In this document: one piece after another, positions 1,397-15,498 of the stretch
Layout of the letters: each line of letters opens with the position of its first letter
Position numbering within the stretch: the stretch's first letter is position 1
Source of the DNA: an uncultured virus (IMG/VR IMGVR_UViG_3300050821_001955)
Taxonomy: Duplodnaviria > Heunggongvirae > Uroviricota > Caudoviricetes
IMG/VR virus record: IMGVR_UViG_3300050821_001955
Direction: 5' to 3' (one strand)
Length of the DNA stretch: 20,000 nucleotides
The notes under the pieces: generated by a model
Databases searched by the model: none
What the model was told of the DNA's origin: nothing
The model's input: only the letters and a program-made list of their open reading frames with translations
Translations under genes and position numbers: made by a program

Positions 1397-4300
1397 GCGA
1401 ATGCCGCTAATCCCGTTACGTGGATATTCGTTCCATCCGGACTATACCAGCTTAAAGTATCTACTGCATTAGCAGCCGTAGACGTTACAAACTTAGTTCC
1501 TCCTGCGAATAGATAGTGACTACTCCAAGTTATTACCGGAGGAGTGCCAGAAGCCGGTTGAGTAATAGTTATAAATCCACTAGCCCCGGCTACTAAGTTA
1601 GTCGGATTAGATAGGGTATAGTTTTGAGCTTGAGTAGGAGCTAGAGTAACGTTCCATCCGGAAGCCATATTCCAAGATACAGTAGTTCCAGGGGTAAGGG
1701 CTTGTACCGTAGTAGAGAGTAGAGTACCTCCCCAAGAGGGAAGAGTAACAGAAGTATTAGCGGTTACGGTAAGAGTTGTAGTAAACGCTCCTGAAAACGT
1801 AACGCTACCTCCTATTGTTATTGTAGAAGCTCCGTTATTAACTCCCGTACCCCCGTAAGTAGCTCCTACTACCGTTCCTTGCCAGACCCCAGTTCCAATA
1901 GTCCCTATAGAGGTAAGACTACTAAGGGTAGCTACAGCACTATTAACTAATGTTCCAGAAGTAGGGAGAGTAACGTTAGTGGACGCAGTTGTAGTTAAGG
2001 TGAGAGCGAAATTACCGGAAGTCGTAAAGGTATTTGCTAGTGAAAGGTTATTAGCGGTTATATTACCCGCAAACGTAGCTAGTTTTGTACTATCTATCGT
2101 TAGAGCCGTAGCGAGAGCATTAACCGATGATCCGGTAGTTCCCGCTGGAGCTACTTGTACTATAAATGAGCCACCTATTCCCGTTCCAGTACCTTGCGAA
2201 CACTTAAATGTAAAGTTAGCTCCCGCAGCATTAGACGTAGCAGTTACTACACTCTGACAAGATATATTCTGGGCTACTGGTGCCGCAGCATCTACATTAC
2301 CTAGTTGAAAAGTAGCTGCCGCTTTACGAGTTAGCATCGTATCAAAAGTAGCCGCAAGATTACCAGCCGTCCAACCAAAAACGGCAGAACTCCACATCCG
2401 TATAGACCCATCAGAACTTACTACTTCAAACGCATTATTTCCTAGAACCGTAATGCCCGTGGAAGTTAATGCCGTACAAGACATCGTTCCAGTTATAACT
2501 AATCCGGCTGTTCCATAGGTACAATTCGCCGGAAGCATCGGATGATTATCCCAAACTCCCGCAGCCGATCCAATATTCGTTACAATAACTAATCCATAGC
2601 CGCCAGCGGGAACAGTACAAACCGCCCCGGACGCATTATCTACAACCGTCAACGCTCCCGTACTGTTATTATTAAACTCGAAAGTCTGATAGAGAGAGAG
2701 GGTAGTAGCGTCCGGAAGCTTAAACGTCTGTGTATTAGTCCCCGTTAATAACTGTACTCTTGTAGAGGCTACCGTAAGAGTTGTAGTACCCGCAGCGGAC
2801 GTTACAGAAGTACATGCACTAATAGCATTATTAAAAGCGGAGTTACCGTTGCTATCCCGATAGGCTACAGTACTAGCAGTAGCAGCAGCCGTTAGAGAAA
2901 TAGCCGTAGCATTAGCAAGACTTCCCGTAGAATTACCTACTACACTATTAGCCGCTACCTGCTGAAACTTAGCGTAAGTCACCGCGTTAGCCGCTATCGT
3001 TGTAGCAAAGGAACCTGTTCCCGTTCCAGTAACGTCATTAGTCAAAGTTATCGTTTGATCCCCGGTATTACTCCCGGATACACTAGCACTAGCCCCTATC
3101 GTGAGAGTATTAGATCCGTTATTTACTCCAGTCCCTCCGTAAGTAGCTCCTATTAGAGTACCGTGCCACGTTCCGGACGTAATCGTACCTATCGTTGCTA
3201 TATCTGTTCCTACTAGCTTAGAAGCTGCTATAGATCCTGATAGCATCGCGTTAGTAACTGCTCCGGCTGCGATAGTCGTAGCAAAGCTTCCCGTACCGCT
3301 TCCGGTTACGTTGCCTGTTAGCGTTATCGTCTGGTCCCCCGTATTACTTCCCGAAACGCTAGCGGAAGCTCCGATAGTTAAAGTGTTTGATCCGTTGTTA
3401 ACTCCCGTTCCCCCATAAGTAGGTCCAATAACCGAAGCATTCCAAGTTCCCGTTACTAGAGTACCTACCGCTGTTACTTGAGTCTGACTAGCTAATACGC
3501 TGAATGTACTTCCGGAGAGTCCTAGCCCAGTCCCGTTTACATAGGTTCCCGGTCCAGCCACTTGAGTAAACGAGATAGCCGTAGTTCCTACCGTTATCGA
3601 TCCGCCGGTTATCATCGTCCAAGTTGTACCGGCTAAAGTTGATCCGCTAGTAACGAATACCGTATCTCCCGCAGCTATCTCCGCTGTAGAGTTAAAGTCT
3701 GTACTACGAGTTAGTACATAAACCGTTCCGGACGTACCTACTATTGTTACTGTAAAGATACCATTATTAGCGGCAGTAGCTTCGTGATCTACTAAAATCC
3801 TATCCCCAACGCTAGGAGTTGATCCGTCTATCGTAAGGATTCCATTGACTACTCCAGTTAGAGTAGCTCCTACACCGCTAGATCCGTTATTGTAAATATT
3901 AGTAGGAAGGGCAGCTGTTGTTGAGTATTTACAAGCAGTCTTAGTAGTAGAGTTAGCTAGGAGAGTATTGATAGCCGTAGTAACATAAGCAGTAGAAGCA
4001 GCGAGCGTACTATTATCAGAAGTTGCCTGGGTCCCTACTATCGGATTAGTAAGAGTAGCTCCGGAAGCTAAGACAATATTACCGCTGCCCGTTGTACTTG
4101 TACTAAGATCCGTAACGGCTAATTGACCTACTGTAACTGCTCCTCCCGAGCTAGTCTGTTTAAGAACTTGAGACGTACCTCCCGTAGCACTAAGATCGGA
4201 GTTAGTCCCTCCGTAAGCTAATCCAACTTTAGTTCCCTGCCAAGTTCCGGTTCCTATAGTTCCTACCGTCGTTAAAGAGGACGTTACTACATTAGAAGCG

Positions 4301-5007
4301 AGAGTAGTCCCGGTTAGAGTTCCAGCAGCAGCTGTAACGGTTATGCTAGCTGATCCGTCAAACGCTACTCCATTGATATTTCTAGCAGTCTGTAAAATAG
4401 TAGCGGTTCCGGCATTTCCACTTATATTAGTCTGATCTCCCGTATTAGTCCCCGATGTATTTCCTATGACTACTAGTTCCGCGTCCGTAACATATCTCTT
4501 ATTACTTGAATCTGCTATATCAGCCGTAGTAAGAGTTACATTACTCGAAAGAGCATGTCCGTTTACAGTAGTTGTCTTAGGAACCAATCCACTAAGGTCT
4601 TGATCTCCTGTATTCGATCCGCTAAGATTTGCCCCCGAAATATTTCCACTAGCTACTATACTTGTAGGAGTGATAGCCCCTAAAGTCAAAGTAATCGCGG
4701 GAGTAGTTGTAGGATTAGCTACTATCCCAGAAACCCCGTTAGCCGTTACTATTGAAAGAGTAGTTACCGTCCCACTCCCACTACTCGCAGCTGCCCAAGA
4801 GAGATTATGACTTCCGTCCGTAGTTAGAACATACCCACCTGATCCATCTACAGACGGAAGTACGTAATCAATACTACCAGCTACTGCTTGAGGCTTAAAT
4901 CCTACACTTCCGGATGTAGAACCGTAGAGTCTAAAACCCCAGCCATTGACTAGAGGTCTTACAAACCCTACCACCGCATCGATTATAAATCCGGGAAACA
5001 AGGACAT
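1393..5007 (-). CDS. Long tail fibre / virion fibre protein (1204 aa)
   Basis: Thr/Gly/Ser/Ala-rich with 4x SG[ST]NTGDQ, 3x TYGGTGVNNG and several GTxxTGxWxG repeats. Includes a fibre module (IDG..VGDRILV..EATAANNGIF...LTRSTDF) and a C-terminal beta domain (TLSNPTNLVAGASGFITITQ...W...STAANAVD). Confidence 0.8.
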   Translation of the reverse strand: MSLFPGFIIDAVVGFVRPLVNGWGFRLYGSTSGSVGFKPQAVAGSIDYVLPSVDGSGGYVLTTDGSHNLSWAAASSGSGTVTTLSIVTANGVSGIVANPTTTPAITLTLGAITPTSIVASGNISGANLSGSNTGDQDLSGLVPKTTTVNGHALSSNVTLTTADIADSSNKRYVTDAELVVIGNTSGTNTGDQTNISGNAGTATILQTARNINGVAFDGSASITVTAAAGTLTGTTLASNVVTSSLTTVGTIGTGTWQGTKVGLAYGGTNSDLSATGGTSQVLKQTSSGGAVTVGQLAVTDLSTSTTGSGNIVLASGATLTNPIVGTQATSDNSTLAASTAYVTTAINTLLANSTTKTACKYSTTAALPTNIYNNGSSGVGATLTGVVNGILTIDGSTPSVGDRILVDHEATAANNGIFTVTIVGTSGTVYVLTRSTDFNSTAEIAAGDTVFVTSGSTLAGTTWTMITGGSITVGTTAISFTQVAGPGTYVNGTGLGLSGSTFSVLASQTQVTAVGTLVTGTWNASVIGPTYGGTGVNNGSNTLTIGASASVSGSNTGDQTITLTGNVTGSGTGSFATTIAAGAVTNAMLSGSIAASKLVGTDIATIGTITSGTWHGTLIGATYGGTGVNNGSNTLTIGASASVSGSNTGDQTITLTNDVTGTGTGSFATTIAANAVTYAKFQQVAANSVVGNSTGSLANATAISLTAAATASTVAYRDSNGNSAFNNAISACTSVTSAAGTTTLTVASTRVQLLTGTNTQTFKLPDATTLSLYQTFEFNNNSTGALTVVDNASGAVCTVPAGGYGLVIVTNIGSAAGVWDNHPMLPANCTYGTAGLVITGTMSCTALTSTGITVLGNNAFEVVSSDGSIRMWSSAVFGWTAGNLAATFDTMLTRKAAATFQLGNVDAAAPVAQNISCQSVVTATSNAAGANFTFKCSQGTGTGIGGSFIVQVAPAGTTGSSVNALATALTIDSTKLATFAGNITANNLSLANTFTTSGNFALTLTTTASTNVTLPTSGTLVNSAVATLSSLTSIGTIGTGVWQGTVVGATYGGTGVNNGASTITIGGSVTFSGAFTTTLTVTANTSVTLPSWGGTLLSTTVQALTPGTTVSWNMASGWNVTLAPTQAQNYTLSNPTNLVAGASGFITITQPASGTPPVITWSSHYLFAGGTKFVTSTAANAVDTLSWYSPDGTNIHVTGLAAFA
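2975..3450 (-). repeat. Internal tandem duplication (276 nt / 92 aa period) in the fibre gene
   Basis: TYGGTGVNNGSNTLTIGASASVSGSNTGDQTITLT is present twice, identically; corresponding codons at 3055 and 3331. Outer boundaries approximate. Confidence 0.9.
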
Positions 5008-5079
5008 TTAAATACCTATGACTTCTACTAAGGACAAGTACATCTTAACCAACCATCCTACTACTGTTAAGATTCTCAT
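5008..5079 (-). CDS. Possible 23-aa hydrophobic peptide (MRILTVVGWLVKMYLSLVEVIGI)
   Basis: AGAAGGA SD-like site just upstream of ATG 5079; its TAA abuts the fibre ATG at 5007. Confidence 0.35.
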   Translation of the reverse strand: MRILTVVGWLVKMYLSLVEVIGI

Positions 5080-5098
5080 AGTCGATCCTTCTATTTAA

Positions 5099-5190
5099 GG
5101 GAACTGGCTCTAGTGTTTACTGAGCGGGATAGGCGGACCACCGTTCAACACTAGAAACCAGCCTCCCGAGAGAGACTCAAAGATTCTCTC
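5099..5190 (-). promoter_or_regulatory. Intergenic RNA stem-loops (processing site, attenuator or terminator-like)
   Basis: Perfect inverted repeat TCTAGTGTT (5109-5117) / AACACTAGA (5147-5155), extendable to about 5099-5167 with G-U pairs and bulges on the minus strand. Adjacent GAGAGA (5168-5173) / TCTCTC (5185-5190) hairpin. No strong U-tract. Confidence 0.5.
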
Positions 5191-5216
5191 AAACTAAAGT
5201 AAGAGAGACAAGCGAA

Positions 5217-5687
5217 CTAAGCCGGAGGGGCTGGAGTAGGTTCCGGAGTAGGAACAGGAGGAGTATCGGGAATTTGAACTACTGTCCCGAGAACTGCGGT
5301 AATAGCTCCAGCCGGAGCAGGAGGAGTAAGGTCAGGGACAGTATAGTCAAAAGTAGTAGGGGCACTAGATTCAAACGCTCCATTCTCAACAACATTGATA
5401 TGAAACGTATCTCCGCTCTTGACTTGAGGAACGTTAAAACTACCTTGGGTGGGAGCGATACTTTGAACAGGCTGAACAACGTTGTTAATCGAGAGATTAA
5501 CGGTTTGACCTACGATACCAGGAGTAGGAGTCCAATTAAACGTAAGAGGAGCTACGTACATAGTCTTTACCCACCTAGCCTTTCCTATCTTGACTTGGAT
5601 CACTTTGACGGGGTTGACTCCATAGTAGAGTTCATACCACCACCGTCCGAACAGTCGCCACTTCACATTAACTAGTTTCTCACCCAT
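5217..5687 (-). CDS. Hypothetical protein with a predicted Ig/Fn3-like beta-sandwich and Pro-rich tail (156 aa; start uncertain)
   Basis: Alternating hydrophobic beta-strand pattern (LTFNWTP, VNLSIN, FHINVVE, FDYTVPD-PPAP) followed by PTPEPTPAPPA. Confidence 0.6.
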   Translation of the reverse strand: MGEKLVNVKWRLFGRWWYELYYGVNPVKVIQVKIGKARWVKTMYVAPLTFNWTPTPGIVGQTVNLSINNVVQPVQSIAPTQGSFNVPQVKSGDTFHINVVENGAFESSAPTTFDYTVPDLTPPAPAGAITAVLGTVVQIPDTPPVPTPEPTPAPPA

Positions 5688-5708
5688 GATTTGCCTATCA
5701 TAATTGAG

Positions 5709-6119
5709 CTACTCCGGGATATTATTTTCTTGACACACCGCTGAATACTGTTGAGGAGTAGCTTCGCGAGTCTGATCTAGAGCCGCAATAGCTACGTCCC
5801 TAGCGGCGTTCCTACGTACTCGTTGTCCTTGACCCCTAAGATGTCGGAGAGTTTGAGTAGTAGCCGGACCTAAAACAATAGGATCATACTGACCGTTATC
5901 ATAGTGCTCGTCAATAAAGTCCGTAGCACTTTGAGTAGCAGCGGGAGGAGTAGGAGTTACCGGGGTTTTCTTACAAGCGGAGAACAGAGTCATAAGCGTA
6001 GGGAACAGAGTAGTAAAGATCGTAATCAGTGTAGTCGGATCAAATACCCCGTAAGTATTAGGAGCACTCGCTTGGAGTTTTTGAGCCGCTAGAGTAGCTT
6101 GATTGTTAGTTTCATTCAT
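5709..6119 (-). CDS. Hypothetical membrane-anchored protein (136 aa), possible lipoprotein
   Basis: Hydrophobic segment TLITIFTTLFPTLMTLFSAC ending in Cys, then a Pro/Thr linker; TAATG coupling to the upstream gene. Confidence 0.65.
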   Translation of the reverse strand: MNETNNQATLAAQKLQASAPNTYGVFDPTTLITIFTTLFPTLMTLFSACKKTPVTPTPPAATQSATDFIDEHYDNGQYDPIVLGPATTQTLRHLRGQGQRVRRNAARDVAIAALDQTREATPQQYSAVCQENNIPE

Positions 6120-6442
6120 TATTTCTCTCCCTTATTCTTGTTTTCTTGGGCTGTTCTATACATATTTAAGTAGTAAAAGTTAAACGCTGAGTCCCTATCC
6201 TTAGTCTTCATAGCTTCTATTTCTCCTATAGTCATCTTTCTCCACTTATCTTCAAACTCCCATACCATTCGATAGTAGTCTCGTTCTGCTTCCTTATAGA
6301 AGATCCAACGCTTATTCCAATACTCATCTCTATCCTTTGGATCTAAAGGAGGGGCGGAGCTAGCGTATCCTACCCCTAAACAAACTAACGCTGTAGCTAG
6401 AAGACTAACAAAGGTAATAGATCCTTCCGGGAATCTTTTCAT
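6119..6442 (-). CDS. Hypothetical exported helical protein (107 aa)
   Basis: Signal-peptide-like N-terminus (MKRF...FVSLLATALVCLGVGYASS-APP); aromatic and charged helical body. Confidence 0.65.
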   Translation of the reverse strand: MKRFPEGSITFVSLLATALVCLGVGYASSAPPLDPKDRDEYWNKRWIFYKEAERDYYRMVWEFEDKWRKMTIGEIEAMKTKDRDSAFNFYYLNMYRTAQENKNKGEK

Positions 6443-6449
6443 ATATCAC

Positions 6450-7115
6450 CTATCTAGGTCCGTGAATAGTGTGCCATCGGTCGTGTTCGTAAACCATTTG
6501 AGAGTAACTCATTCCACTAGTATTTATTCCATGAGAGCTTTCAAGATGTCTCTTAAGACTACTAGGAGTATTATCAGGCCAAGTATATCTAGGTACAGGC
6601 AATCTTGCGTTAGCTTGAGATAGGCTCTGACTATCTCTTGTCTGTACGATCTGTTTTGGCTTAGCTTCTTTCGGTAGTAGGCTCTTCTCAGTAGCTTCAT
6701 ATTTGTTAAGGAAGTAGTCTACTCCTAGCCAACCTTCTTCTTTCCTCCAATCCCCTTTAGAGTCTTGCCAAAGTAGGAAAGGAGTTCCCGTAGCTTCTTT
6801 CGGTAGATCGGTTCTAAAGACTACATTGAACTTATCTTTGATCCTAGGGTCTTGACAATCCTTATACCCTTTTATACAGTTCTTACAACTACCGTGTCCT
6901 GCGGCTAGTTGTTTCTCTGTTTCTTTCGAGTAGAACCTTATACAAGGCTTTTTCGGAAGTAGCGGAGGAGCTACGTGTTTCTGATCTTCAATATGCTCGA
7001 AATGAGGTAGCTCTCCTTTTTCTATCTTGTACTCATAAATCGTTTCGGGTAGCGGAGACACCTGTACTTTGAACTCTATGTCTCCTACAAATAGAGCTAG
7101 TAATAAAAGGTACAT
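6450..7115 (-). CDS. Thioredoxin/glutaredoxin-like CxxC protein with His-rich C-terminal motif (221 aa)
   Basis: Beta strand CIRFYS, then C77-K-N-C80, then GTP112FLLWQ...GW (cis-Pro strand pattern). C-terminal RYTWP...LKRHLESSHG...EHDRWH. Short hydrophobic N-terminus; TAATG-coupled to the protease gene. Confidence 0.65.
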   Translation of the reverse strand: MYLLLLALFVGDIEFKVQVSPLPETIYEYKIEKGELPHFEHIEDQKHVAPPLLPKKPCIRFYSKETEKQLAAGHGSCKNCIKGYKDCQDPRIKDKFNVVFRTDLPKEATGTPFLLWQDSKGDWRKEEGWLGVDYFLNKYEATEKSLLPKEAKPKQIVQTRDSQSLSQANARLPVPRYTWPDNTPSSLKRHLESSHGINTSGMSYSQMVYEHDRWHTIHGPR

Positions 7116-7900
7116 TAAGCAGCTACCGTAGAGAGAGGACAGACAGCGTCGTCAGCTAGTATTTTTGTACCCTGCAAGACACTAAAGCCTTGAGATCCAA
7201 ATCCATCGCCCCAGCTATTTCTGAACCGAATCGCGATAGCTCCGTTAAGCCAAACCGCATCGCAAAATACTACTTCGTGACCCCACCAATTAAGTCCTAC
7301 CGCTACGGGGATGTTTCGGAGCAGACAAGAGATCATCTGGTTAGTATTCTTAGGTACTAGCTCATACCAACCTACGATCCGATAATCAAGGGCAGCTTGA
7401 ACGTTAGCCGGAGTATGGTACTTACTACTAATCGCGTTAACAGGCCAAAGAGATTCCGGAACAATACCGTTATCAACGATATACTTAAGAGCAGCTTCCC
7501 CCCAACCTCCTACGTTCTTATAGCCGGTAATCGGTCCCCCTACGCTAGCTGCCGAGAGCTTAACCATAGGCTCATTTTGTATAACCCTAAGCATCTCTAC
7601 TGTACCCGTCGGAGCATTACACCAACAGTAGTTAGTTTGTTGCTGGTTCTTACTAGGAAGATTAGCTTGAAGAACTAAGTCCGAGATACGATTTTTAAGT
7701 TGTTCTTTTTCGGCTATCCTAGCTTGCCATTCCGATTGAGGAATAAGTAGTTCATCGGGAAACGGAGTAGTAGTAGCCATCCGTCCGTAAGGGGTAGTCC
7801 TAGCTCCCGCCATATACCCAGTACTCATCCCATCCGGAGTAACGATACTAGGAGTATCATCGTCAATAACAATTTCGTTATCGAATAATTCGCTAGTCAT
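7115..7900 (-). CDS. Papain-like cysteine peptidase (clan CA, family C1-like; 261 aa)
   Basis: KNQ86QQTNYC92W matches papain KNQGSCGSCW (oxyanion Gln, catalytic Cys 6 residues later). Also KLS motif, GH208EV catalytic His, RN228SWGxxFGxxG catalytic Asn motif. No signal peptide. Confidence 0.9.
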   Translation of the reverse strand: MTSELFDNEIVIDDDTPSIVTPDGMSTGYMAGARTTPYGRMATTTPFPDELLIPQSEWQARIAEKEQLKNRISDLVLQANLPSKNQQQTNYCWCNAPTGTVEMLRVIQNEPMVKLSAASVGGPITGYKNVGGWGEAALKYIVDNGIVPESLWPVNAISSKYHTPANVQAALDYRIVGWYELVPKNTNQMISCLLRNIPVAVGLNWWGHEVVFCDAVWLNGAIAIRFRNSWGDGFGSQGFSVLQGTKILADDAVCPLSTVAA

Positions 7901-8754
7901 TATTGACCTCCTTGTTGCTTAAGGAAATTAAGCGTATCTGTCTCGGTATTTGGGAGAGGATAAACCTTAGCTGCTCCGTTTACGGAAATCACTAGTTGAG
8001 GACTAGTTCCTACTAACAACGGCCCCATTTGAGACTTAGTAGCATTCCATAGAGCTACCATAGTAGGAGATTCCTTAGTCCCTACTTCTAAAGTTGGAGC
8101 CCACATACGCCATTCCGGTCTTCCGTCCGCTCCTTTAACACAATGAGAGTTTAGATAGTCTCGAATACTAGTAGAGTAGATTGTATTTAATTGATCTCTA
8201 GTATTATTCGCCATCGGATCAAATACGATTATGACTCTAAATCCGGTAGGAGTTACTACGTTGGGAGTAGGTGGAACTACCGGGGTAGGATTAACCGGAT
8301 TAACTGGTGTAGGGTTAATCGGAATAGGGACTGGAGCAGGAGCAGGTAGCAAACCATGCTTAGTCTCTACTCCTTGTAAGAGAGTTTGGAGCTTAGTAAG
8401 TAGGGTTAGTGCTCCGTTCTTTTGAGTTTCCGATTGAGTAAACTCTTGATCTATAGCCGCTATTAAGCTAGCTAAGTCTGTAACCGGAATAGGTACAGGA
8501 GCAGGAGGATTAACTGGAACCGGAGGTATGACCGGTGTAGGATTAACAGGGACTACGGGAACCGGAGCAGGAGGTACTACCGGAACTACCGTAGTGTTAG
8601 GAGACGGAATAGGTTGAGGGGGAACTACTATTACATCTGTCGGGTTGGGAGCGGGAGTTGGTCCGGGTGCGGGAAAATAGTGACCTATCGCTGTTCCCGC
8701 GAATAGTAAGAGAGCAGCTATAAAAGCTCTCCAACCTGTTAAGTTATTTTGCAT
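7900..8754 (-). CDS. Pro-rich exported or membrane-tethered protein with C-terminal alpha/beta domain (284 aa)
   Basis: N-terminal hydrophobic segment (WRAFIAALLLFAGTAIG), two Pro/Val-rich linkers (PVNPTP, PAPVP repeats) flanking a helical hairpin, and a C-terminal domain (FRVIIVFD...SPQLVIS) resembling a Trx-like fold without CxxC. Confidence 0.7.
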   Translation of the reverse strand: MQNNLTGWRAFIAALLLFAGTAIGHYFPAPGPTPAPNPTDVIVVPPQPIPSPNTTVVPVVPPAPVPVVPVNPTPVIPPVPVNPPAPVPIPVTDLASLIAAIDQEFTQSETQKNGALTLLTKLQTLLQGVETKHGLLPAPAPVPIPINPTPVNPVNPTPVVPPTPNVVTPTGFRVIIVFDPMANNTRDQLNTIYSTSIRDYLNSHCVKGADGRPEWRMWAPTLEVGTKESPTMVALWNATKSQMGPLLVGTSPQLVISVNGAAKVYPLPNTETDTLNFLKQQGGQ

Positions 8755-8795
8755 TTTGTTACCTATCTAGTTAGAAGCCTATCTTACCTATCAAA

Positions 8796-9269
8796 CTAAA
8801 CTACTATTTCACCTTCTCTAATTTGCCTAGCCCTATCGTGATATTTCCACATAGGACATTTAGTAGAAATCCATTCCTTACAAGTACATCCTTCCATAAC
8901 TACTTTACTAGGATTTTTCTTAGCATTAATAAAAAAGAATTCTCTATCTTCTTCATTAAATTTCCTACACTTTAAAGGAGCGGAAGCAAAGCTAGTCTCC
9001 CGGATTAGTTCTCCTTTTTCCGGATCTTCTAACATGTTTCCGTCTTTGTTAAGTTTATAGTATTGAATCTCTCCCGTTATAGTGTTTACTTGTACTAATC
9101 GGTGAGTAACTCTCTTTCCATACCTATCGAAAGTAGCTATACAATAGGGTGCATCTTTTGTATAGATACCGGGAGGAAGCCATTCACTAGTCTCTTTAGC
9201 TTCTACTTTTCCGTAGATCAGCCAAGTGAATAATCCTACTAGCGTTTTGAGAAATTCATTCCTATTCAT
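8796..9269 (-). CDS. Hypothetical protein with a Tat-like leader (157 aa)
   Basis: MNRNEFLKTLVGLF...VEA resembles the S/T-RRxFLK consensus with the second Arg replaced by Asn; Cys cluster near the C-terminus. Confidence 0.65.
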   Translation of the reverse strand: MNRNEFLKTLVGLFTWLIYGKVEAKETSEWLPPGIYTKDAPYCIATFDRYGKRVTHRLVQVNTITGEIQYYKLNKDGNMLEDPEKGELIRETSFASAPLKCRKFNEEDREFFFINAKKNPSKVVMEGCTCKEWISTKCPMWKYHDRARQIREGEIVV

Positions 9270-9278
9270 AATCTATTC

Positions 9279-9611
9279 CTACGGAGTAACTACCGGAGTC
9301 ACGTGCCTATGGTGATGGTGCTTAACGTGAGTATGAACTCGACCAAAAATCCCTACGTGAGTGCTCTCTCGGTGATTAACGCTCTCATAACCTACTGCTC
9401 CGTAGCTACTAGGAGCACCACAATCGGCTACTCCCGCGTAGCCTCCGTAACTACGTCCGTAAACCCCCCTAGAAGACCCGTAGGAGCGATAGGACCGGGA
9501 ATAGGATCTTCCTACCCCGTTAGGACAGACGCCTCCGGGGCAGCCCGCTAGAGCGGTTTCCGAGAGGATAAGAGAAACGAGTAAAAGACTAGCCACAATC
9601 AACGTTTTCAT
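9279..9611 (-). CDS. Small secreted protein with CPGGVCP motif and His-rich tail (110 aa)
   Basis: Sec-type signal peptide ending ALA, mature N-terminus GCPGGVCP, Ser/Tyr/Gly/Arg low-complexity middle, HTHVKHHHHRH near the C-terminus; AAGGA SD. Confidence 0.75.
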   Translation of the reverse strand: MKTLIVASLLLVSLILSETALAGCPGGVCPNGVGRSYSRSYRSYGSSRGVYGRSYGGYAGVADCGAPSSYGAVGYESVNHRESTHVGIFGRVHTHVKHHHHRHVTPVVTP

Positions 9612-9626
9612 TAGTAGTTTCCTTGA

Positions 9627-9914
9627 TTAGACAAATTGTTCGATAAAGTCTGAAAGCTTCTCCGCGAAAATAGTAGGATCTATCTCCGTATGTAGTGGTT
9701 GTCCGTGATCGTCGGACTTTTGGAGATAAATCTTTCCTCCTTCGTTAAGGATTATAGCAGGGTCAGTAAACTTGATACTGAAGTTTTTATTATGTCCTAT
9801 GACTAGCGACTTATTAGCCTTATCTCGATAGAAATGAACGTCTCCGTTTTTATAGGTAAGCCAAACTCCTTCAATCTGTCCGGTTCTAGCAAAGGCCATT
9901 TTAGTAGGTAGCAT
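9627..9914 (-). CDS. Hypothetical protein (95 aa)
   Basis: Clean ORF filling the operon slot with short gaps on both sides; soluble, beta-rich. Confidence 0.65.
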   Translation of the reverse strand: MLPTKMAFARTGQIEGVWLTYKNGDVHFYRDKANKSLVIGHNKNFSIKFTDPAIILNEGGKIYLQKSDDHGQPLHTEIDPTIFAEKLSDFIEQFV

Positions 9915-9929
9915 AGGTATAATTAGTCT

Positions 9930-10184
9930 CTATTGAGGAATAGTAGGTTTAGGAGCAGGAGCAGGGATAAGATGAATCCCTAGTAAATTCTCCATCGTAA
10001 TAATTCCCTGAAGGATAGGAAGTATCTCGGCTGCGTAAGGTACTAGCGGAAGGACCCAAGCCGGAGGAGGGACTAGGGCCAAATCCCTAGCTACGTCACG
10101 GATCAAAGTATCTCCTCCGGCGATAACTTGATTAAACGCTACTTGAGCACCGCTACTCAGATTCTTAGGAACTTGAATACTCAT
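9930..10184 (-). CDS. Hypothetical hydrophobic protein (84 aa)
   Basis: AAAGGAG SD; amphipathic to hydrophobic C-terminal half, Pro-rich tail. Confidence 0.7.
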   Translation of the reverse strand: MSIQVPKNLSSGAQVAFNQVIAGGDTLIRDVARDLALVPPPAWVLPLVPYAAEILPILQGIITMENLLGIHLIPAPAPKPTIPQ

Positions 10185-10203
10185 AGCCTATCTCCTTTAT
10201 TAG

Positions 10204-10419
10204 CTAGTCTTTGAAACGTAAAACGGGAACACCGGCAAAGTTTAGCAACATACCTATCAATACCAGCACTATCAAAACTTTAAGGACTATGTTAATCCAG
10301 TTCTTATAAGGTTCCGGAATAGGAACGATAGAGATCAGATAGAACAAGAGTCCTACTATACATCCGAATACAAGTAGAGTAACTATCAACGTAACTAGAC
10401 CGCCAATTGTAAGTACCAT
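10204..10419 (-). CDS. Two-TM small membrane protein (Thivi_2564-like), candidate holin or antiholin (71 aa)
   Basis: Two long hydrophobic helices joined by an IVPIPEPYKNWINI loop, resembling the Thivi_2564 family pattern. Confidence 0.7.
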   Translation of the reverse strand: MVLTIGGLVTLIVTLLVFGCIVGLLFYLISIVPIPEPYKNWINIVLKVLIVLVLIGMLLNFAGVPVLRFKD

Positions 10420-10431
10420 GATGTTTCTCTT

Positions 10432-11046
10432 CTAGTGGTGCGGTTTCTTAGGTTTGTGACTATCCGGTTTTGGTTTATGTTCTTCTTCCGCTACAACCGG
10501 AGTTACTTCCGGAGGAGGATCATTATGAGTGTCTACAGTAGTCTCGGTATGAGTAGTTACCGTAGTAGGATTAGGACTAGGAGCAGGATTTACTATAACA
10601 GCTGGAGGAGCGGGAGTTTGTACTATTGTAGTCGTTGTATCTACCGGCTTGGGATCGGGAGCGAACTTAGGAATCATATCACTCCAACCTCCCCAAATCG
10701 GAATACCACAAGCTTTGAGATTAGTAGAGATGCTAAGGAGTTCAAATCCTGAATAGAACATAGAGATACCTTTAGTCACCGGGAAATCGGGAACCATAGT
10801 TTCTACTACTGCCCCCGCTCCTATTGCTAAGAGAGTTCCGATTTTTCGATTCGTAGCTTTAAATATATCATGCATACAGACCGTGTCCGTAGATACAGCA
10901 GCACAATAGCGAGTAATAATGTCTATAACCATTAGTACAAGTAGTCCTAAGACTATAGGTACATATTGTATATAGTGAAATACTACTTGAAGCTCCGGAG
11001 AGACAGCGGGGTGTTCAGCTAGGAGAAACATCTGTATCCCTTTCAA
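10432..11046 (-). CDS. Phage holin, Phage_holin_4_1-like, with a Pro/Thr-rich C-terminal extension (204 aa; true start may be MFLLAEH)
   Basis: LLVLMVIDIIT...A...RKIGTLLAIGAG...FY..FELLSISTNL...GIPI parallels the family pattern D-x-I-T-G / K-K / FYxxxExxSIxEN / GxPxP. Confidence 0.75.
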   Translation of the reverse strand: MKGIQMFLLAEHPAVSPELQVVFHYIQYVPIVLGLLVLMVIDIITRYCAAVSTDTVCMHDIFKATNRKIGTLLAIGAGAVVETMVPDFPVTKGISMFYSGFELLSISTNLKACGIPIWGGWSDMIPKFAPDPKPVDTTTTIVQTPAPPAVIVNPAPSPNPTTVTTHTETTVDTHNDPPPEVTPVVAEEEHKPKPDSHKPKKPHH

Positions 11047-11467
11047 TGGTAGGCTCTTTCGCTATCTCTACAGCAGCGGTTATTACTGACCCATGAGTGA
11101 GATTATTTGGAATCCCTATGTCTTTCATTAGATGATCTCCAAATTCTTTATCAAGTATTACAAATATTTCGTTATCGGAGAGACTAGAACAGTTCTCTTC
11201 ATAGAACTTCCTTAAGTCTCCTATGTAGTTTCTAAAAAATACTCTAGTTGCTTCATTGAGAATGAACGGGCTGTTTATGTTACCTAGTCCTTTAGCTACC
11301 GCTTCACTATGAGCCCCTCTAATCAAATAGTCCCAAAGAGCATCTACCCGTTTCTCAATCTGATCAAACCTACCCATGATATAATAATAGGGGACGCCTA
11401 TCCCTACTCCAAAAAGTAAGAGAATAGCTATAACGGAACAAGCTATTACGGTAGAGCTAAGAGTCAT
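11015..11467 (-). CDS. Single-pass membrane protein (150 aa)
   Basis: N-terminal TM helix, short coiled coil (RFDQIEKRVDALW), globular C-terminus; ATGA-coupled to the upstream gene. Confidence 0.7.
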   Translation of the reverse strand: MTLSSTVIACSVIAILLLFGVGIGVPYYYIMGRFDQIEKRVDALWDYLIRGAHSEAVAKGLGNINSPFILNEATRVFFRNYIGDLRKFYEENCSSLSDNEIFVILDKEFGDHLMKDIGIPNNLTHGSVITAAVEIAKEPTIERDTDVSPS

Positions 11468-11907
11468 GCTGTATCATCGTTTTGAGAAGTTCTTTCAGGA
11501 TGTTTCCTTAACTCTTGCTCTTGCTTGGCTAAAGCTCTGCTTTGGTCTCTAGCTTCCTTAGATTTCTCTAGAGCTTCTAATCGTAGCTGAGTCTTAGTCT
11601 TAAACTCGGCTGTATCTGTCTTGAAAGCTTTATAAGAGTCCCAATGTCTAGTGTATTCTTGCTTAGCCGTAGAATCGTTCTCTATACACTCCTTTATATT
11701 CTGTAAGCAAGAGTCTATCCTAGTCTCAATCTTAGTGATATGCTTAATCTTAGCTAAGTCCGTAAAGAACAGAACTAATCCTCCTGCCGCTAGTAGCAAA
11801 CTAACCGCAATTCCTACTATCGTAAGTGTGCCTATCGCGGTAAGGATATGAGTTAAAGTCTCATTATTCTCTACCATAGTACCTATCGATCCTTTAACTA
11901 AGTTCAT
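11464..11907 (-). CDS. Membrane protein with C-terminal coiled coil (147 aa; alternative start at 11877), holin- or spanin-like architecture
   Basis: Long hydrophobic segment (ILTAIG...LVLFF) followed by a charged heptad-like region. Confidence 0.7.
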   Translation of the reverse strand: MNLVKGSIGTMVENNETLTHILTAIGTLTIVGIAVSLLLAAGGLVLFFTDLAKIKHITKIETRIDSCLQNIKECIENDSTAKQEYTRHWDSYKAFKTDTAEFKTKTQLRLEALEKSKEARDQSRALAKQEQELRKHPERTSQNDDTA

Positions 11908-12277
11908 GTATAGACGCCATTACATATAAAGCCCCAGAAGCATAAAAAGGCCAAAGAGCTACTAAGACTCGAATCTCAGTACTATCGCTACGTCGTCCCT
12001 TAACTTCTCGACCTAAGTTCATAGACTTGCTAAGAGGATTTCTAATGAATTCATCTCTTAGTCTTACATGGTCTTCTACTACGGGAAGAGGGAGAACCGA
12101 TTCAATTTTCTTACCTATCAATCCGCCCATAATAGTTTTAAACATACCCTCAGCTTGAGAGTTAGCTACTACAATAGTTCCTTTGTCGTCTATGACTATC
12201 TTACCAGAACTTTCCCAAGCGATGTCTTTACAATCATTGAGAGATAAAACTACTCCAAAGCTAATAGCGTTTGTCAT
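11894..12277 (-). CDS. Standalone PAS-domain protein, FixL-like (127 aa)
   Basis: IVIDDKGTIVVANSQAEGMF...LIGKKIESVLP...H70...LGR90EVKGRRSDSTEI.V.V.L is a complete PAS/PAC signature; no output domain. Confidence 0.9.
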   Translation of the reverse strand: MTNAISFGVVLSLNDCKDIAWESSGKIVIDDKGTIVVANSQAEGMFKTIMGGLIGKKIESVLPLPVVEDHVRLRDEFIRNPLSKSMNLGREVKGRRSDSTEIRVLVALWPFYASGALYVMASIHELS

Positions 12278-12669
12278 GGATGAATACTTTCAGTCTTAGA
12301 GAGAGCATTTACTGCTTGGCTCAGAGTTTGAAGAGCTACTCTAAGACTTTGCATCTCCGATTGCATTCCTTGAAGATTCCTATCTCCGTCTCTACTTGCT
12401 CGTTCTAATATTGAATTGAGAGCTTTAGAGAATTCTGCGTGCTGTTCTTTTCTCTCCTCCGTACAAGCTTTATGAAGCTCTTTATTATGTTCGGCTTGAC
12501 TCTTAATCAATCCATCAAACTGTTTGTCTTTATCGGGAAGATGTTTTAGAAGTAACCAACCTAACACTAGTCCTAGTAAACCCGCTCCGGCCCATCCTGC
12601 TCCTCCGGAGATAAGATTAGCATCTGTAACCGGAGTATTACTAGCTTGAGCTAAGATAAAAAGGTTCAT
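12274..12669 (-). CDS. Single-TM plus coiled-coil membrane protein (131 aa), holin- or lysis-accessory-like
   Basis: GWAGAGLLGLVLGWLLL TM helix followed by a long coiled coil; ATGA-coupled to the PAS gene. Confidence 0.7.
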   Translation of the reverse strand: MNLFILAQASNTPVTDANLISGGAGWAGAGLLGLVLGWLLLKHLPDKDKQFDGLIKSQAEHNKELHKACTEERKEQHAEFSKALNSILERASRDGDRNLQGMQSEMQSLRVALQTLSQAVNALSKTESIHP

Positions 12670-12672
12670 TAG

Positions 12673-13041
12673 TTATTTCAGACGAGTAAAAGCACTAGCT
12701 CTTAAATTACCCGTGTCGACTGGCACGAGTAGTTGACTCTCTCTTTGTAATCTTAGTCCCGCCAGTAGTAGAGCATTGGCTAGAGTCATTTTATTATTGA
12801 ATACTAAGTCTCTTACCATCTCGACTATCTCTGGTCTCAACTGTCTAACTGGAGTCTCAAGAAATTTAGCTTGTCCTCCATTAGGGTGATTAGCTTCTAA
12901 GTTCTCGTGAACATAAACTGCATATGCGGCTGTATAGCCTACGATTACTTGAGGATTAGTCTTAGTAGCTCCGGAACCGAAAGCACTCTTAGAGAGTCCC
13001 CTAAACGCTCGTTGAATTCCGTCTATTCCGGTAACTTTCAT
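12673..13041 (-). CDS. HK97 gp10-like neck / tail-completion protein (122 aa)
   Basis: Hallmark motifs VPVDTGNLRAS, VGYTAAYAVYVHE and QAKFLE; position after head-joining genes. Confidence 0.85.
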   Translation of the reverse strand: MKVTGIDGIQRAFRGLSKSAFGSGATKTNPQVIVGYTAAYAVYVHENLEANHPNGGQAKFLETPVRQLRPEIVEMVRDLVFNNKMTLANALLLAGLRLQRESQLLVPVDTGNLRASAFTRLK

Positions 13042-13045
13042 AATA

Positions 13046-13414
13046 CTAGTCTGCTAAAGGGGGTAAAGTACCGGCATAGTTCATAAGAGTTACAGTACGT
13101 CGTATAGCTCTACCTTTTACATCCTTCATAGCCTTGAAGTTGATCACCTCCCTTAACTGATCTGGAGGATTAGGTAGATAAGCTAAAGCTCCTAGTCTCA
13201 TTACACTCCCAACCGGAATATCAACTACAACAACTACCGTAGTAGGCTTAGATACTGGCCCAGTTAGAGCAGAGACGGTTTCTATAGTAGAGTCATCCCA
13301 ACGTACTGTAATCTCTACAGGTTTATCTAGAGTAACAATAGCGAAGTCAGTAACCCCTAGCTTACGCCAGAGTACGGCTTTCTCATAACGTCCTATAACC
13401 TCTGGAGCGGGCAT
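13046..13414 (-). CDS. Putative head closure (stopper) protein (122 aa)
   Basis: Size, beta-rich pattern (AVLWR...PVEITVRWDD) and position between the adaptor and the gp10-like gene. Confidence 0.65.
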   Translation of the reverse strand: MPAPEVIGRYEKAVLWRKLGVTDFAIVTLDKPVEITVRWDDSTIETVSALTGPVSKPTTVVVVVDIPVGSVMRLGALAYLPNPPDQLREVINFKAMKDVKGRAIRRTVTLMNYAGTLPPLAD

Positions 13415-13416
13415 AG

Positions 13417-13812
13417 CTAATTACAATCCGATCCTAACCAGAGTACCGTAGCTCTCGCGTTATTATCGAAAGAGGACAACCCTCCGGAGATGTCTAGACG
13501 CTTAGCCTGCTGTCCGTAGCGAGTTCCTTCTAGACCCATAGCGGATTGACCTTGGAAGCTTCCGCTAGCTCCTTGTGTACTCTTAGACATGTAGAGAGGA
13601 TCAGCTTGAGCATAGTAATGAGCCGCTAACCAAGCTTCTATTCGCTCTTGGAGAGTAGTGCTAAGGGTTATTCCCCGTTCTGTAGCGAAGTTTACTGACT
13701 CGTCTACTAACGCACTAGCCGTATCGATAAACCCGGTTAAGTCCGGATTCTTAAGCGTGTCGTAGTTATCGAGTAGTATATTTTTTACAGCGATAGCGGT
13801 AGTTCTAGCCAT
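13417..13812 (-). CDS. Head-to-tail adaptor protein (131 aa)
   Basis: FIDTASALVD...RIEAWLAAHY...LEGTRYGQ...LDISGGL pattern typical of phage adaptor proteins; position downstream of the capsid gene. Confidence 0.8.
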   Translation of the reverse strand: MARTTAIAVKNILLDNYDTLKNPDLTGFIDTASALVDESVNFATERGITLSTTLQERIEAWLAAHYYAQADPLYMSKSTQGASGSFQGQSAMGLEGTRYGQQAKRLDISGGLSSFDNNARATVLWLGSDCN

Positions 13813-13863
13813 TATGTACTCTTTCTAAGTAGTGAACTATTAACAGAGTACCGAGTCTAGAAC

Positions 13864-14343
13864 TTATTGAGGAGCACTCCGAAGAATCTTAATGATCTCT
13901 TCCTTAGTCTTAGCCTTACCCAAAGGAATCTCTTCCGCTTGGGCATGAGCTTGAAGCTGAGGAATAGTCATATCATCGAAAGGATCATTAGCACTAGGAT
14001 TGAGGTTAGCCGTATTACCGATCTCAAATCCTGATTTAGCGGCTAGAGCTACGGGAGAGAGCTTATCGCTAGGATTAACGTTGAAAATCTCTTCAAACTT
14101 AATCGAACCGGGATAGTTGAACTTTTTACAAAGGTCAGCGGTATCCGGAACTAGATCGCCACCCCATTGATCGTCCTCAATACCATCGGGAGGACGTTTG
14201 ACTCCGTAAATAATAGGCCGGTGAGTAGGTTCCCCATCTTCGTTTACAACGCACTTACCTCCGTGGAATCCTGCGAGAATCCGGAAGTAGCGAATGGGCT
14301 TAACTTTCTTTTGAATAACGGGAGTGGTTTCAACGCTAGACAT
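13864..14343 (-). CDS. Protein with C-terminal Rho_N/HeH-like helix-extension-helix domain (159 aa)
   Basis: FDDMTIPQLQAHAQAEEIPLGKAKTKEEIIKIL fits the Rho_N/HeH pattern often found just after phage capsid genes; AAGGAG SD. Confidence 0.75.
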   Translation of the reverse strand: MSSVETTPVIQKKVKPIRYFRILAGFHGGKCVVNEDGEPTHRPIIYGVKRPPDGIEDDQWGGDLVPDTADLCKKFNYPGSIKFEEIFNVNPSDKLSPVALAAKSGFEIGNTANLNPSANDPFDDMTIPQLQAHAQAEEIPLGKAKTKEEIIKILRSAPQ

Positions 14344-14387
14344 AGTTCTCTCTCCTTAGTGTAAAGTTTTAAAGTTACCTATCTAAA

Positions 14388-14654
14388 CTATTGGGTTTCT
14401 CGTTCCGGCCAGTGCCAAGTATTTAGTACGTGATTGTCTCCGTGAATTACCGATCCTACTGCCATCGTAGCTCCGTGGTGTTCTTTAGCTTCCCGGTCGT
14501 GATCGCTATCTAAGAACACTACTAAATTACAACATCCAGCGTTCATTAGTCCTTGACCTACGTTAGCGGGAATATTCGCTACGATAGCAGGTCTATGTTC
14601 TCCGCTACTTCTAAGAACATAGTGAACTATCCTTCCTACTGCTAAGCCTATCAT
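14388..14654 (-). CDS. Conserved-looking phage hypothetical protein (88 aa)
   Basis: VGRIVHYV...RPAIV...LVVF...TWHWPER motif set; AAGGAG SD. Confidence 0.75.
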   Translation of the reverse strand: MIGLAVGRIVHYVLRSSGEHRPAIVANIPANVGQGLMNAGCCNLVVFLDSDHDREAKEHHGATMAVGSVIHGDNHVLNTWHWPERETQ

Positions 14655-14669: not shown

Positions 14670-15392
14670 TTAAGCTGCTTCGTTTTGTTTAATCTTATCG
14701 GCTTCTCTTTGGCGTCTAGTATTCCAGATTCTCTCGGCTATTTCCGCTGCATCCGGTCGTTTACTCCAATGATTTGTTTTAGCACTTTCTTTTAGCTTCT
14801 CCGCCATGTTCCTAATCTTCTCTTCTGTTTCTTCTCCTCCCCGTTTAGTCCAATGCGCATCACTAATCTTTTTCTTAGTAGCGTCATCCATTTTACGCCC
14901 GGTTTGGAACTTTCTTACAGCTTCGTTAACATGTAAAGGACGTTTCTTTCCTTTATTAGCTATCGCTGCTGCTATAGTAGCTTTCACGCGGTTTAAGTTT
15001 CCCTTTTGACTAATACGCATCTTAGCTCTAGATTCCTCAGTATGTTTAACTCCTAACATATTTTGAGTAACACTCCGAGCTATGTTATATCCTAAAGTTC
15101 TGTCATAGGGAGTAAAGTGGTCTATCCAAAATTGTTCCCTAGGTAAGCAGTCTTCCTTATTTTTGCACGTCTCTAATATATACCAATCAAAATACTTAGC
15201 TCCGTATTTATTCCAAGCATTTTGCAAGTATCTATTAACATGCTTCCCGCTTTCCAACGCCTTTTTATGACCGTTCCATCGATCCTTAAAACTAGTAGCA
15301 GTGCTTCCTATATACATTTTACCATTTACAGTATTTAGTATCTGGTAAACTCCTATCTTGTTTTTCAAACGACTTATATTAGCTTTTGGCAT
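14670..15392 (-). CDS. Free-standing GIY-YIG homing endonuclease with NUMOD3-like repeats
   Basis: GVYQI..NGKMYIGS, catalytic-type R (KDRW), E (REQFWID) and N (GYNI); basic repeats GVKHTEESRAKM and GRKMDDATKKKIS. The AGGGAG SD (15399-15404) favours ATG 15392 over 15398. Confidence 0.92.
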   Translation of the reverse strand: MPKANISRLKNKIGVYQILNTVNGKMYIGSTATSFKDRWNGHKKALESGKHVNRYLQNAWNKYGAKYFDWYILETCKNKEDCLPREQFWIDHFTPYDRTLGYNIARSVTQNMLGVKHTEESRAKMRISQKGNLNRVKATIAAAIANKGKKRPLHVNEAVRKFQTGRKMDDATKKKISDAHWTKRGGEETEEKIRNMAEKLKESAKTNHWSKRPDAAEIAERIWNTRRQREADKIKQNEAA

Positions 15393-15426
15393 TATCATCT
15401 CCCTTAGAATGATACCCTAGAAAAGT

Positions 15427-15479: not shown

Positions 15480-15498
15480 TTTGAAGTAGTCTCTATTG

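Follow-up and report, generated by a model that had tools for sequence, protein, structure and literature searches.

The DNA analysed here, referred to as the window, is a stretch of 20,000 nucleotides (nt) from the uncultured virus IMGVR_UViG_3300050821_001955 (Caudoviricetes), and all of its genes are on the minus strand. Positions 5217 to 12669 are filled by a block of 16 minus-strand open reading frames (ORFs) located between neck and fibre genes. The tight packing described in an original prediction for this region is borne out, as seven of the 15 junctions within the block overlap (by 1, 1, 1, 32, 4, 14 and 4 nt) and the biggest gap is 41 nt. Five of the genes, which include a cysteine peptidase called PEP here, recur in related loci:

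10432 to 11046, minus strand: holin with a Phage_holin_4_1 domain at residues 30-117 (above the Pfam cut-off) and a Pro/Thr/His/Lys-rich tail
7900 to 8754, minus strand: c1, a signal-anchor and a C-terminal domain of predicted thioredoxin fold (AlphaFold2 (AF2), Foldseek and synteny)
7115 to 7900, minus strand: PEP, C1A papain-type cysteine peptidase (above the Pfam cut-off; AF2)
6450 to 7115, minus strand: CxxC (CKNC) protein of 221 amino acids (aa), predicted to be exported (motif and position)
5709 to 6119, minus strand: c11/c30 family member of 136 aa (profile comparison with relatives)

The block is read here as a phage lysis region whose conserved core would consist of the holin and a four-gene envelope-attack module, with PEP as the most likely lysis effector; we consider the chances of this reading being right to be evenly balanced. 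The other 11 genes would be accessories of membrane, lipoprotein and PAS type, specific to the lineage. Family assignments, export signals, synteny, fusions, a model of the c1-PEP complex and the non-detection of muralytic families are computed results; the role in lysis, the sequence of events, the substrate and the host are inferred.

PEP matches Peptidase_C1 (PF00112) at E 7e-9, with 36.5 bits against a Pfam cut-off of 20.7. The protein comprises an N-terminal pro-segment of about 52 residues and a catalytic domain with Q86, C92, H208 and N228, which we take to be the counterparts of Gln19, Cys25, His159 and Asn175 of papain. An alignment of 30 homologues shows no variation at Q86, C92, W93, H208, N228 and W230. 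Homologues at E<=0.001 number 245 among 584 candidates and are mostly 50-57% identical and about 260 aa long; the few that are named are proteins of Planctomycetota, Isosphaeraceae or Cupriavidus metagenome-assembled genomes (MAGs). The AF2 model of PEP (predicted local distance difference test, pLDDT, 92) has a two-lobed papain fold and matches best the structure of xylellain (3OIS; Z 22.9, root-mean-square deviation 2.1 over 211 residues), followed by procathepsins at Z of about 21. Zymogens align to PEP from residues 4-14 and mature enzymes from about residue 53, which suggests that the first 52 or so residues act as a short pro-segment and that PEP is probably made latent, as a zymogen. 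Judged by its residues, PEP is a genuine C1A papain-type enzyme for which proteolysis is predicted. No signal peptide was found in PEP, and PHROGs holds no family for it.

Related loci number 93 (80 viral contigs and 13 genome contigs), and together with the window they form 94 sources, in all of which PEP was located with profile hidden Markov models (HMMs) on six-frame ORFs. Directly upstream of PEP lies c1, which is on the same strand and almost always adjacent in 85 of the 94; among the nine sources that lack it, L003, L024 and L061 end at a contig edge just before PEP. The window's c1 has an N-terminal signal-anchor, two Pro-rich linkers flanking a helical stretch, and a C-terminal domain at about residues 171-284 (AF2 pLDDT 91). 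A signal or anchor is found at the N-terminus in 44 of 56 clustered members. Every top Foldseek match of the domain is a thioredoxin or protein disulfide isomerase domain, at weak values (E 5e-3, TM-score about 0.5), and CxxC is absent from the window protein and forms no invariant column in a 38-sequence alignment. On its modelled structure, the C-terminal domain is a redox-inactive thioredoxin-fold domain. Given that the c1 domain family comprises 3,587 representative clusters at E<=0.001 (2,786 at E<=1e-10) and that PEP had no match in 50,697 GenBank phage records searched by tblastn with two divergent queries, the module appears to be common in nature and absent from cultured phages. A search of plasmids for PEP likewise gave no match.

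In three lineages (L071, L073 and L074/L075) c1 and PEP are encoded together in a single ORF with a signal peptide, anchor or lipobox (LLLAGC) ahead of them, which argues that PEP works outside the cytoplasm, jointly with c1. A model of the c1 domain with PEP scored 0.89, versus 0.03 for the best of three controls; as a yardstick, 116 of 157 solved complexes and 2 of 215 mismatched pairs attained that mark, counts that hold roughly, custom alignments having been used. Contacts agreed by 100% between runs, and the partner pLDDT was at least 84. The modelled interface on PEP covers residues 48-78, 107-111, 171-179, 194-197 and 256-261, and much of it is formed by a PEP-specific helical insertion of about 20 residues (approximately 55-78). 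Based on this model, c1 is predicted to be the docking partner of PEP. A role for c1 as an active-site inhibitor is disfavoured, as the modelled interface omits C92 and H208. Hitch-hiking of PEP on c1 through the twin-arginine translocation (Tat) pathway was also rejected, since an RR flag occurs in 6 of 56 c1 rows (4 distinct sequences) and not in the window's c1, the flag scoring the RR pair alone. The export signals of the module are atypical in the c1 and thioredoxin genes of L039-L048 and L085 and in the window's 6450-7115, where a short hydrophobic stretch with no positive n-region has an acidic end (LLLLLDDPALVFP, LLIADEWRF, LFVGDIEF). A DUF1353 protein (phrog_1158, labelled 'tail assembly chaperone') lies between or near c1 and PEP in seven loci (L057, L058, L049, L050, L053, L012 and L040).

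Directly downstream of PEP, 32 of the 94 sources encode an exported thioredoxin. The relatives' thioredoxin has the motif WCGPC, while the window protein 6450-7115 has CKNC at residues 77-80. In its N-terminal part, LFVGDIEFKV agrees with the signal end of the thioredoxin cluster, its C-terminal His-rich motif (W-P-G...HL...HG...HD..H) is common to the +1 proteins of L016, L082 and L087, and its positional counterparts in L016, L005, L082 and L087 match Pfam thioredoxin models. Since a significant profile match is lacking and counterparts and motifs are shared, 6450-7115 is classed as thioredoxin-like by synteny, and not as a proven family member. The thioredoxin downstream of PEP is fused to or replaced by a trypsin-like Trypsin_2 domain in L030, L040/L043, L056 and the G372 region (L117:35-1168); this domain could be an activating or a second protease. 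Members of the c11/c30 family occur in 28 of the 94 sources and immediately precede c1 in every case but the window, where 5709-6119 sits 987 nt downstream of PEP. The window member has a moderately hydrophobic helix, then a conserved Cys and then a helical domain.

The holin matches Phage_holin_4_1 (PF05105) at E 3.6e-12, with 46.8 bits against a cut-off of 22.2, and phrog_199 (holin) at 2.1e-6; a match to TIGR01593 (4e-6, 26.8 bits) falls below its cut-off of 40.2. A simple hydropathy scan finds one segment at or above 1.6, and hole formation is predicted for the protein. Six of the 94 sources, including L013, L016/L017, L070 and L082, have a holin of the window type at most 2.5 kb from PEP. 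In L016/L017, the neck, holin, c30, c1, PEP and thioredoxin-like genes are contiguous, and homologues of the window's neck genes (12673-13812) stand before the holin in L016/L017 and L005. Small proteins with at least two transmembrane (TM) segments are enriched within four genes of PEP (13 of 566 versus 5 of 1016, p 0.002, with redundancy not removed). In lambda-like relatives the module lies directly before the gpA-type terminase, and in the complete genome G015 it is the final gene set before the terminal repeat. Its position varies: in G004 it is flanked by the portal and Mu F genes, and in the G372 prophage its neighbours are replication genes. The backbones that carry it are sipho-, podo-, lambda- and crAss-like. 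In L023 (2896-4938) the module adjoins crAss-type tail-ring and auxiliary capsid genes, and from this occurrence it appears to move between very different backbones (sipho, Mu-like, lambda-like and crAss-like).

Inteins (Intein_splicing, Hom_end_hint) are inserted exactly at the catalytic Cys in the PEP homologues P0047, P0071 and P0086 (TNY/C...HN/CW). Intein insertion at catalytic sites is typical of genes that a phage cannot lose. The inteins and the near-universal conservation of the module therefore argue for an essential function, which suggests that PEP is essential. A role for PEP as a head-maturation protease was rejected, since lambda-like relatives possess their own S49 protease and PEP stands behind export signals in three lineages.

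The remaining genes of the block, which would be the lineage-specific accessories, and the features at its boundaries are as follows:

12673 to 13812, minus strand: three neck/head-tail connector genes, upstream boundary (weak PHROG matches)
12274 to 12669, minus strand: TM segment (residues 23-41) and long helical tail, 131 aa, lineage-specific; 4-nt overlap with the next gene
11894 to 12277, minus strand: stand-alone PAS-like protein, 127 aa, with no TM segment (profile matches below cut-off and PDB sequence matches)
11464 to 11907, minus strand: TM segment (residues 30-48) and charged helical tail, 147 aa, of i-spanin-like architecture
11015 to 11467, minus strand: N-terminal TM segment (residues 7-25) and a domain of about 120 aa, 150 aa in all (hydropathy)
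10204 to 10419, minus strand: two strong TM segments (residues 8-26 and 44-62), 71 aa (hydropathy)
9930 to 10184, minus strand: one hydrophobic segment (residues 44-62) and a Pro-rich C-terminus, 84 aa (hydropathy)
9627 to 9914, minus strand: soluble protein, 95 aa, with no family in Pfam, PHROGs or NCBIfam
9279 to 9611, minus strand: predicted lipoprotein, 110 aa, with a signal peptide and LAGC lipobox (sequence)
8796 to 9269, minus strand: Cys-containing protein, 157 aa, with a weakly hydrophobic N-terminus (MNRNEFLK...)
6119 to 6442, minus strand: N-terminal signal or anchor, 107 aa (hydropathy)
5217 to 5687, minus strand: possible Ig-like (TIG) domain and Pro-rich tail, 156 aa (TIG at 5.3e-3, below cut-off)
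1393 to 5007, minus strand: repeat-rich fibre-like protein, 1204 aa, downstream boundary (phrog_30390, 1.4e-14)

A hydrophobic export or anchor segment, defined as 19 residues with a Kyte-Doolittle mean of at least 1.6, is present in 10 of the 16 block proteins, with shorter N-terminal stretches in two more (6450 and 8796) and a lipobox in 9279-9611, in agreement with the original prediction that most of these genes encode TM helices or export signals. Its holin, C1 protease, CxxC protein and two-TM protein (10204-10419) were likewise recovered, as were the proteins that it described as TM plus coiled coil (11464-11907 and 12274-12669, each with a TM segment and a long helical tail). For 12274-12669, Pfam matches of coiled-coil type were all sub-threshold and none of the 93 related loci held a homologue; for 11464-11907 there was no family in Pfam, PHROGs or NCBIfam and no homologue in the same loci. 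These two proteins and the lipoprotein 9279 are spanin-like candidates that are not adjacent to one another and have neither a family match nor homologues in relatives. The lipoprotein could be an outer-membrane (o-spanin-like) component; its body is of an unusual low complexity, rich in Gly, Tyr, Ser and Arg, and it ends in a His-rich tail (HHHHRH). The two-TM protein, for which Pfam, PHROGs and NCBIfam give no family above threshold, might serve as an antiholin or as a second holin. A search for hidden enzymes gave no PDB sequence match and only unnamed Atlas clusters for 11015-11467, and no PDB match and Atlas scores of at most 0.80 for 8796-9269.

The claim of a PAS protein held in part, as 11894-12277 gave consistent matches in three libraries, each time just under the threshold. 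It matched PAS_9 of Pfam at E 3.1e-4 (21.4 bits against a cut-off of 27), the NCBIfam sensory_box at 1e-4 (22.4 against 22.9), and FixL PAS chains of the PDB at E 0.005-0.03 over residues 25-126; ten of 12 PDB chains at E<=1 were of PAS/FixL type over residues of about 25-126. PAS proteins appear to be a recurrent accessory, because TM-anchored PAS proteins above the Pfam cut-off adjoin the module in L056, L062 and L084. The best alignments of 11894-12277 are with the heme-binding PAS domains of FixL and DosP, and a His lies within its ...EDHVRLRDEF... stretch; heme binding or oxygen/redox sensing by this protein is therefore conceivable.

Along the direction of transcription, the window begins with an acidic protein (17263-19998), followed by a decoration-like protein, a DUF6260/phrog_771 major capsid protein, a GIY-YIG homing endonuclease, the three neck-type genes, the block (12669 to 5217), the fibre-like protein and a glycine-rich protein. 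The final gene of the block, 5217-5687, is separated from the fibre gene by 209 nt. The fibre-like protein has long internal repeats, for example GATYGGTGVNNGSNTLTIGASASVSGSNTGDQTITLT, which occurs twice, with a shorter variant of the first part of GATYGGTGVNNGSNTLTIGASASVSGSNTGDQTITLT near the C-terminus. The large acidic protein is open at the window end and carries three copies of an NDWKKWNAxH-type motif (TNDWKQWNATHG, DNDWKKWNAEHSG and FTEWNRIHGHG), and no family was found for it in Pfam, PHROGs or NCBIfam. The GIY-YIG/NUMOD3 homing endonuclease (14670-15398, minus strand; phrog_314, 1.5e-33) lies directly downstream of the major capsid gene, and a 69-aa ORF (15404-15613) overlaps the end of the capsid gene. 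In a scan of positions 4900-14500, promoter and terminator sites did not exceed the level of shuffled sequence, and the block DNA showed no similarity to GenBank phages.

Lysozyme, amidase, SLT, M15, M23, CHAP and NlpC/P60 families were not found in the 16 block proteins at E<=0.01 with Pfam, PHROGs and NCBIfam, in line with the original prediction that the block contains no muralytic motif. Muralytic Pfam families were also missing from all four complete relatives (G004, G007, G011 and G015), in scans of ORFs of at least 95 aa in which 122 proteins were compared at E<=1e-3 and 149 at E<=1e-4, the ORF calling of G007 being crude. A 77-kb prophage region in a 3.02-Mb Planctomycetota contig, where the PEP triad lies amid integrase, tail tube, capsid, portal and terminase genes, had no muralytic protein among 87 ORFs of at least 90 aa, though the prophage may extend beyond this region. 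None of 248 non-redundant same-strand neighbours within five genes of PEP belonged to a muralytic family (E<=1e-3). Among 31 PEP-bearing viral records of at least 40 kb, seven of which are at least 90% complete, Phage_lysozyme, Glyco_hydro_19, SLT, Amidase_2, Glyco_hydro_108, Peptidase_M15_4 and NLPC_P60 were each found in none. The window sequence itself was not found in the viral contigs searched; the only extension found is a metagenome contig of 2.5 kb, which lengthens the window by 1.4 kb and is free of lysis genes. Further proteases occur in PEP-bearing phages, as astacin/matrixin-like and reprolysin-like metalloprotease matches in G007 (L102:3922-4941) and L079:7429-8427.

Six of the 13 genome-collection matches to PEP are in Planctomycetota MAGs. 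Sampling of 401 Planctomycetota genomes turned up PEP in three, one of them with four copies, versus 1 of 401 (the centre itself) in the phylum of a Fonsibacter MAG, numbers too few for significance on their own. One Planctomycetota MAG (G003, the source of L082) has four different PEP copies on four contigs, and L001 encodes an extracytoplasmic function (ECF) sigma factor of the PF07638 type. Planctomycetes are described in part of the literature as having a protein wall resistant to sodium dodecyl sulfate (PMC3422733) with cysteine-rich YTV proteins (PMC12673574).

The proposal that PEP is the lysis effector is based on the combination of a latent hydrolase, an exported docking protein and thiol reductase, a link to a holin, and a position typical of lysis genes, together with conservation and inteins that suggest an essential function and the failure to detect a muralytic enzyme in carriers. 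Late in infection, c1 and the thioredoxin-like protein would be exported via their own signal sequences, while PEP, lacking a signal, would build up inside the cytoplasm as a zymogen whose pro-segment covers the active-site cleft. Triggering of the holin would let PEP into the periplasm, where it would dock on the tethered c1 domain and lose its pro-segment. Thioredoxin might keep the catalytic thiol of PEP reduced, open disulfide cross-links of the envelope, or both. PEP would then cut a load-bearing polymer of the envelope and so replace a muralytic endolysin; its substrate could be cysteine-rich wall proteins of a Planctomycetota-type host or the peptides of peptidoglycan. Several claims of the original prediction are modified accordingly in scope. 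The linkage of holin, C1 protease and thiol-redox genes is conserved in relatives, and five genes of its expanded 16-gene exit module recur there, while the 93 related loci contain no homologue of the other 11. A host with an atypical protein-rich envelope is consistent with relatives linked to Planctomycetota and their cysteine-rich protein wall, a link that comes from those relatives and not from the window's own host. The protease as effector agrees with the extracytoplasmic location of PEP implied by the signal and lipobox fusions of relatives. No endolysin was detected in relatives, and one elsewhere in the incomplete genome of the window is possible.

Several points weigh against this reading, which is purely computational. 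As PEP lacks a signal peptide, its route across the membrane is assumed, and only 6 of the 94 sources have the recognised holin type close to PEP. The modelled interface excludes the active site and so gives no indication of what c1 does to PEP. The window's 6450-7115 has no significant match to the HMM of the downstream-thioredoxin cluster (E 0.12) and no Pfam match at E<=0.01. The other seven of the 13 genome-collection matches are in Nannocystaceae, Fonsibacter, Gemmatimonadota, two Gammaproteobacteria, Hyphomicrobium and an unclassified bacterium, and the bin membership of phage contigs in MAGs is unreliable. Planctomycetes also possess peptidoglycan according to part of one report (PMC4432640), so a wall protease alone may not suffice. 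The endolysin searches have limits of their own. In the complete relatives the majority of genes match nothing in Pfam, the scans covered ORFs of at least 90-95 aa, and the counts come from PEP-bearing phages only. The controls of the family search were silent for two of the seven families, and the positive control, PF00112, found PEP in only 16 of the 31 records, so divergent endolysins could be missed. Because the window genome is incomplete, a conventional endolysin may also lie elsewhere in it.

An extended form of the lysis reading applies to Planctomycetota-type hosts and dispenses with any peptidoglycan hydrolase. The holin would free the latent protease, which would dock on the thioredoxin-fold adaptor; thioredoxin would reduce the disulfides of the cysteine-rich wall, the protease would dismantle the wall, and membrane-anchored PAS proteins would gate the timing by redox or energy sensing. 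This extended form is tentative, and it is rather unlikely to hold as a whole.

Alternatively, PEP could be a new catalytic class of true endolysin, a C1A-fold endopeptidase that acts on the stem peptides or cross-links of peptidoglycan in an ordinary host envelope, in the manner of CHAP, NlpC/P60 and PeiW-type enzymes of the papain superfamily. This would be a sub-case of the lysis reading with another substrate, and we regard it as unlikely. Papain-superfamily cysteine peptidases are established phage wall hydrolases according to part of one source (PMC10318531), and seven of the 13 MAGs with PEP relatives are non-planctomycete. In BFVD, two of the names given to proteins with C1-like domains from uncultured phages, 'Peptidoglycan binding-like' (484 aa, rank 10) and 'N acetylmuramidase (Fragment)' (385 aa, rank 19), are suggestive of multi-domain endolysins, but these names are automatic, the identity is 17%, and the suggestion comes from the names and not from the sequences. 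The closest structures to PEP, however, are all protein-cleaving C1A enzymes and zymogens, neither PEP nor c1 has a peptidoglycan-binding domain, and the trypsin-like protease fused to thioredoxin in some relatives is a better fit to protein degradation.

It is also conceivable, although improbable in our estimation, that c1, PEP and thioredoxin carry out exported remodelling of the envelope, such as receptor destruction (for superinfection exclusion or against progeny trapping) or processing of phage proteins, and that lysis is due to an unrecognised enzyme. Fused c1-PEP proteins exported by a signal or lipobox would not need a holin, the recognised holin type is adjacent in few sources, and the module position differs among phage types (G004 and G372). 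The near-universal conservation and the inteins at the catalytic Cys, however, argue for an essential function, lambda-like relatives have the module where lysis cassettes sit, ahead of the terminase, L016/L017 have it contiguous with the holin, and the four complete genomes yielded no other lysis enzyme. Equally improbable is a mosaic make-up of the block from unrelated accessory membrane genes, with a conventional endolysin in the unsequenced part and PEP at most a LysB-like accessory enzyme against an extra envelope layer, for although 11 of the 16 genes are without homologues, the window genome is incomplete and the endolysin searches were of limited sensitivity, five genes form a module conserved over sipho-, podo-, lambda- and crAss-like backbones and complete relatives show no conventional endolysin.

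With PEP taken again as the effector of a lysis region, the block can be compared with known systems. The lysis cassette of phage lambda consists of S, R and Rz/Rz1, which are the holin, endolysin and spanins. Like it, the block is a tight late-gene cassette with a holin, a signal-less effector, membrane-anchored and lipoprotein accessories and, in lambda-like relatives, a position before the terminase. Unlike the lambda cassette, it has no recognised muralytic enzyme and no recognised adjacent or embedded spanin pair; its enzyme is a C1A zymogen that has a thioredoxin-fold protein as obligatory partner and is accompanied by an exported thioredoxin. Phage P1 Lyz is reportedly a signal-anchor-release (SAR) endolysin activated by thiol-disulfide isomerisation, and PEP is proposed to be similar in being a periplasmic lysis enzyme whose catalytic Cys depends on thiol redox. 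It differs from Lyz in that its redox partner is a separate exported thioredoxin and in having neither a second conserved Cys nor a SAR domain; a Lyz-like caging disulfide is disfavoured in PEP for want of that second Cys. Xylellain of Xylella fastidiosa and procathepsins L, K and B share catalytic residues with PEP, and the N-terminus of PEP aligns with zymogen pro-peptides, whereas PEP is phage-encoded, has the helical insertion at about 55-78 and is linked to holin and thioredoxin genes. BFVD contains C1-like peptidases from uncultured Caudovirales (such as A0A6J5QDM8), with 'Peptidase C1A' as their sole annotation, which have the same fold and length (266 aa, TM-score 0.72) and probably belong to the same family as PEP; some distant C1-like domains of BFVD, in contrast to PEP, are fused to peptidoglycan-binding or muramidase modules. 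CHAP, NlpC/P60, Amidase_5 and the pseudomurein endoisopeptidases PeiW/PeiP are, like PEP, Cys-His peptidases of the papain-like superfamily, and open the host wall according to part of one source (PMC10318531); PEP is distinguished from them as a member of family C1A with a Gln-Cys-His-Asn set and a pro-segment. Mycobacteriophage LysB, as described in part of one report (PMC6116114), is a lysis enzyme directed against a non-peptidoglycan layer of a host with an atypical wall, as is proposed for PEP, but LysB is lipolytic and accompanies the peptidoglycan hydrolase LysA (PMC6116114), whereas no LysA equivalent was detected with PEP.

A literature search, mostly at abstract level, turned up no publication that links a C1 peptidase to phage lysis or describes such a cassette. 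To our knowledge, all described tailed-phage lysis systems rely on a peptidoglycan hydrolase. If the lysis reading is true, a cassette with a protein-cutting C1A peptidase as its only recognisable enzyme, together with redox partners, would represent a new effector class; should the extended form hold, lysis based on a protease and redox chemistry would be categorically different from the phage lysis systems described. The module is directly testable with recombinant proteins and isolated envelopes. The finding would also give access to the study of planctomycete phages, a field hardly explored so far, 'phage' being mentioned once in a 2025 review (PMC12673574). The gene set may represent a mechanism of host bursting that has not been described for phages, and it could explain how phages exit from hosts whose walls are rich in cross-linked protein.

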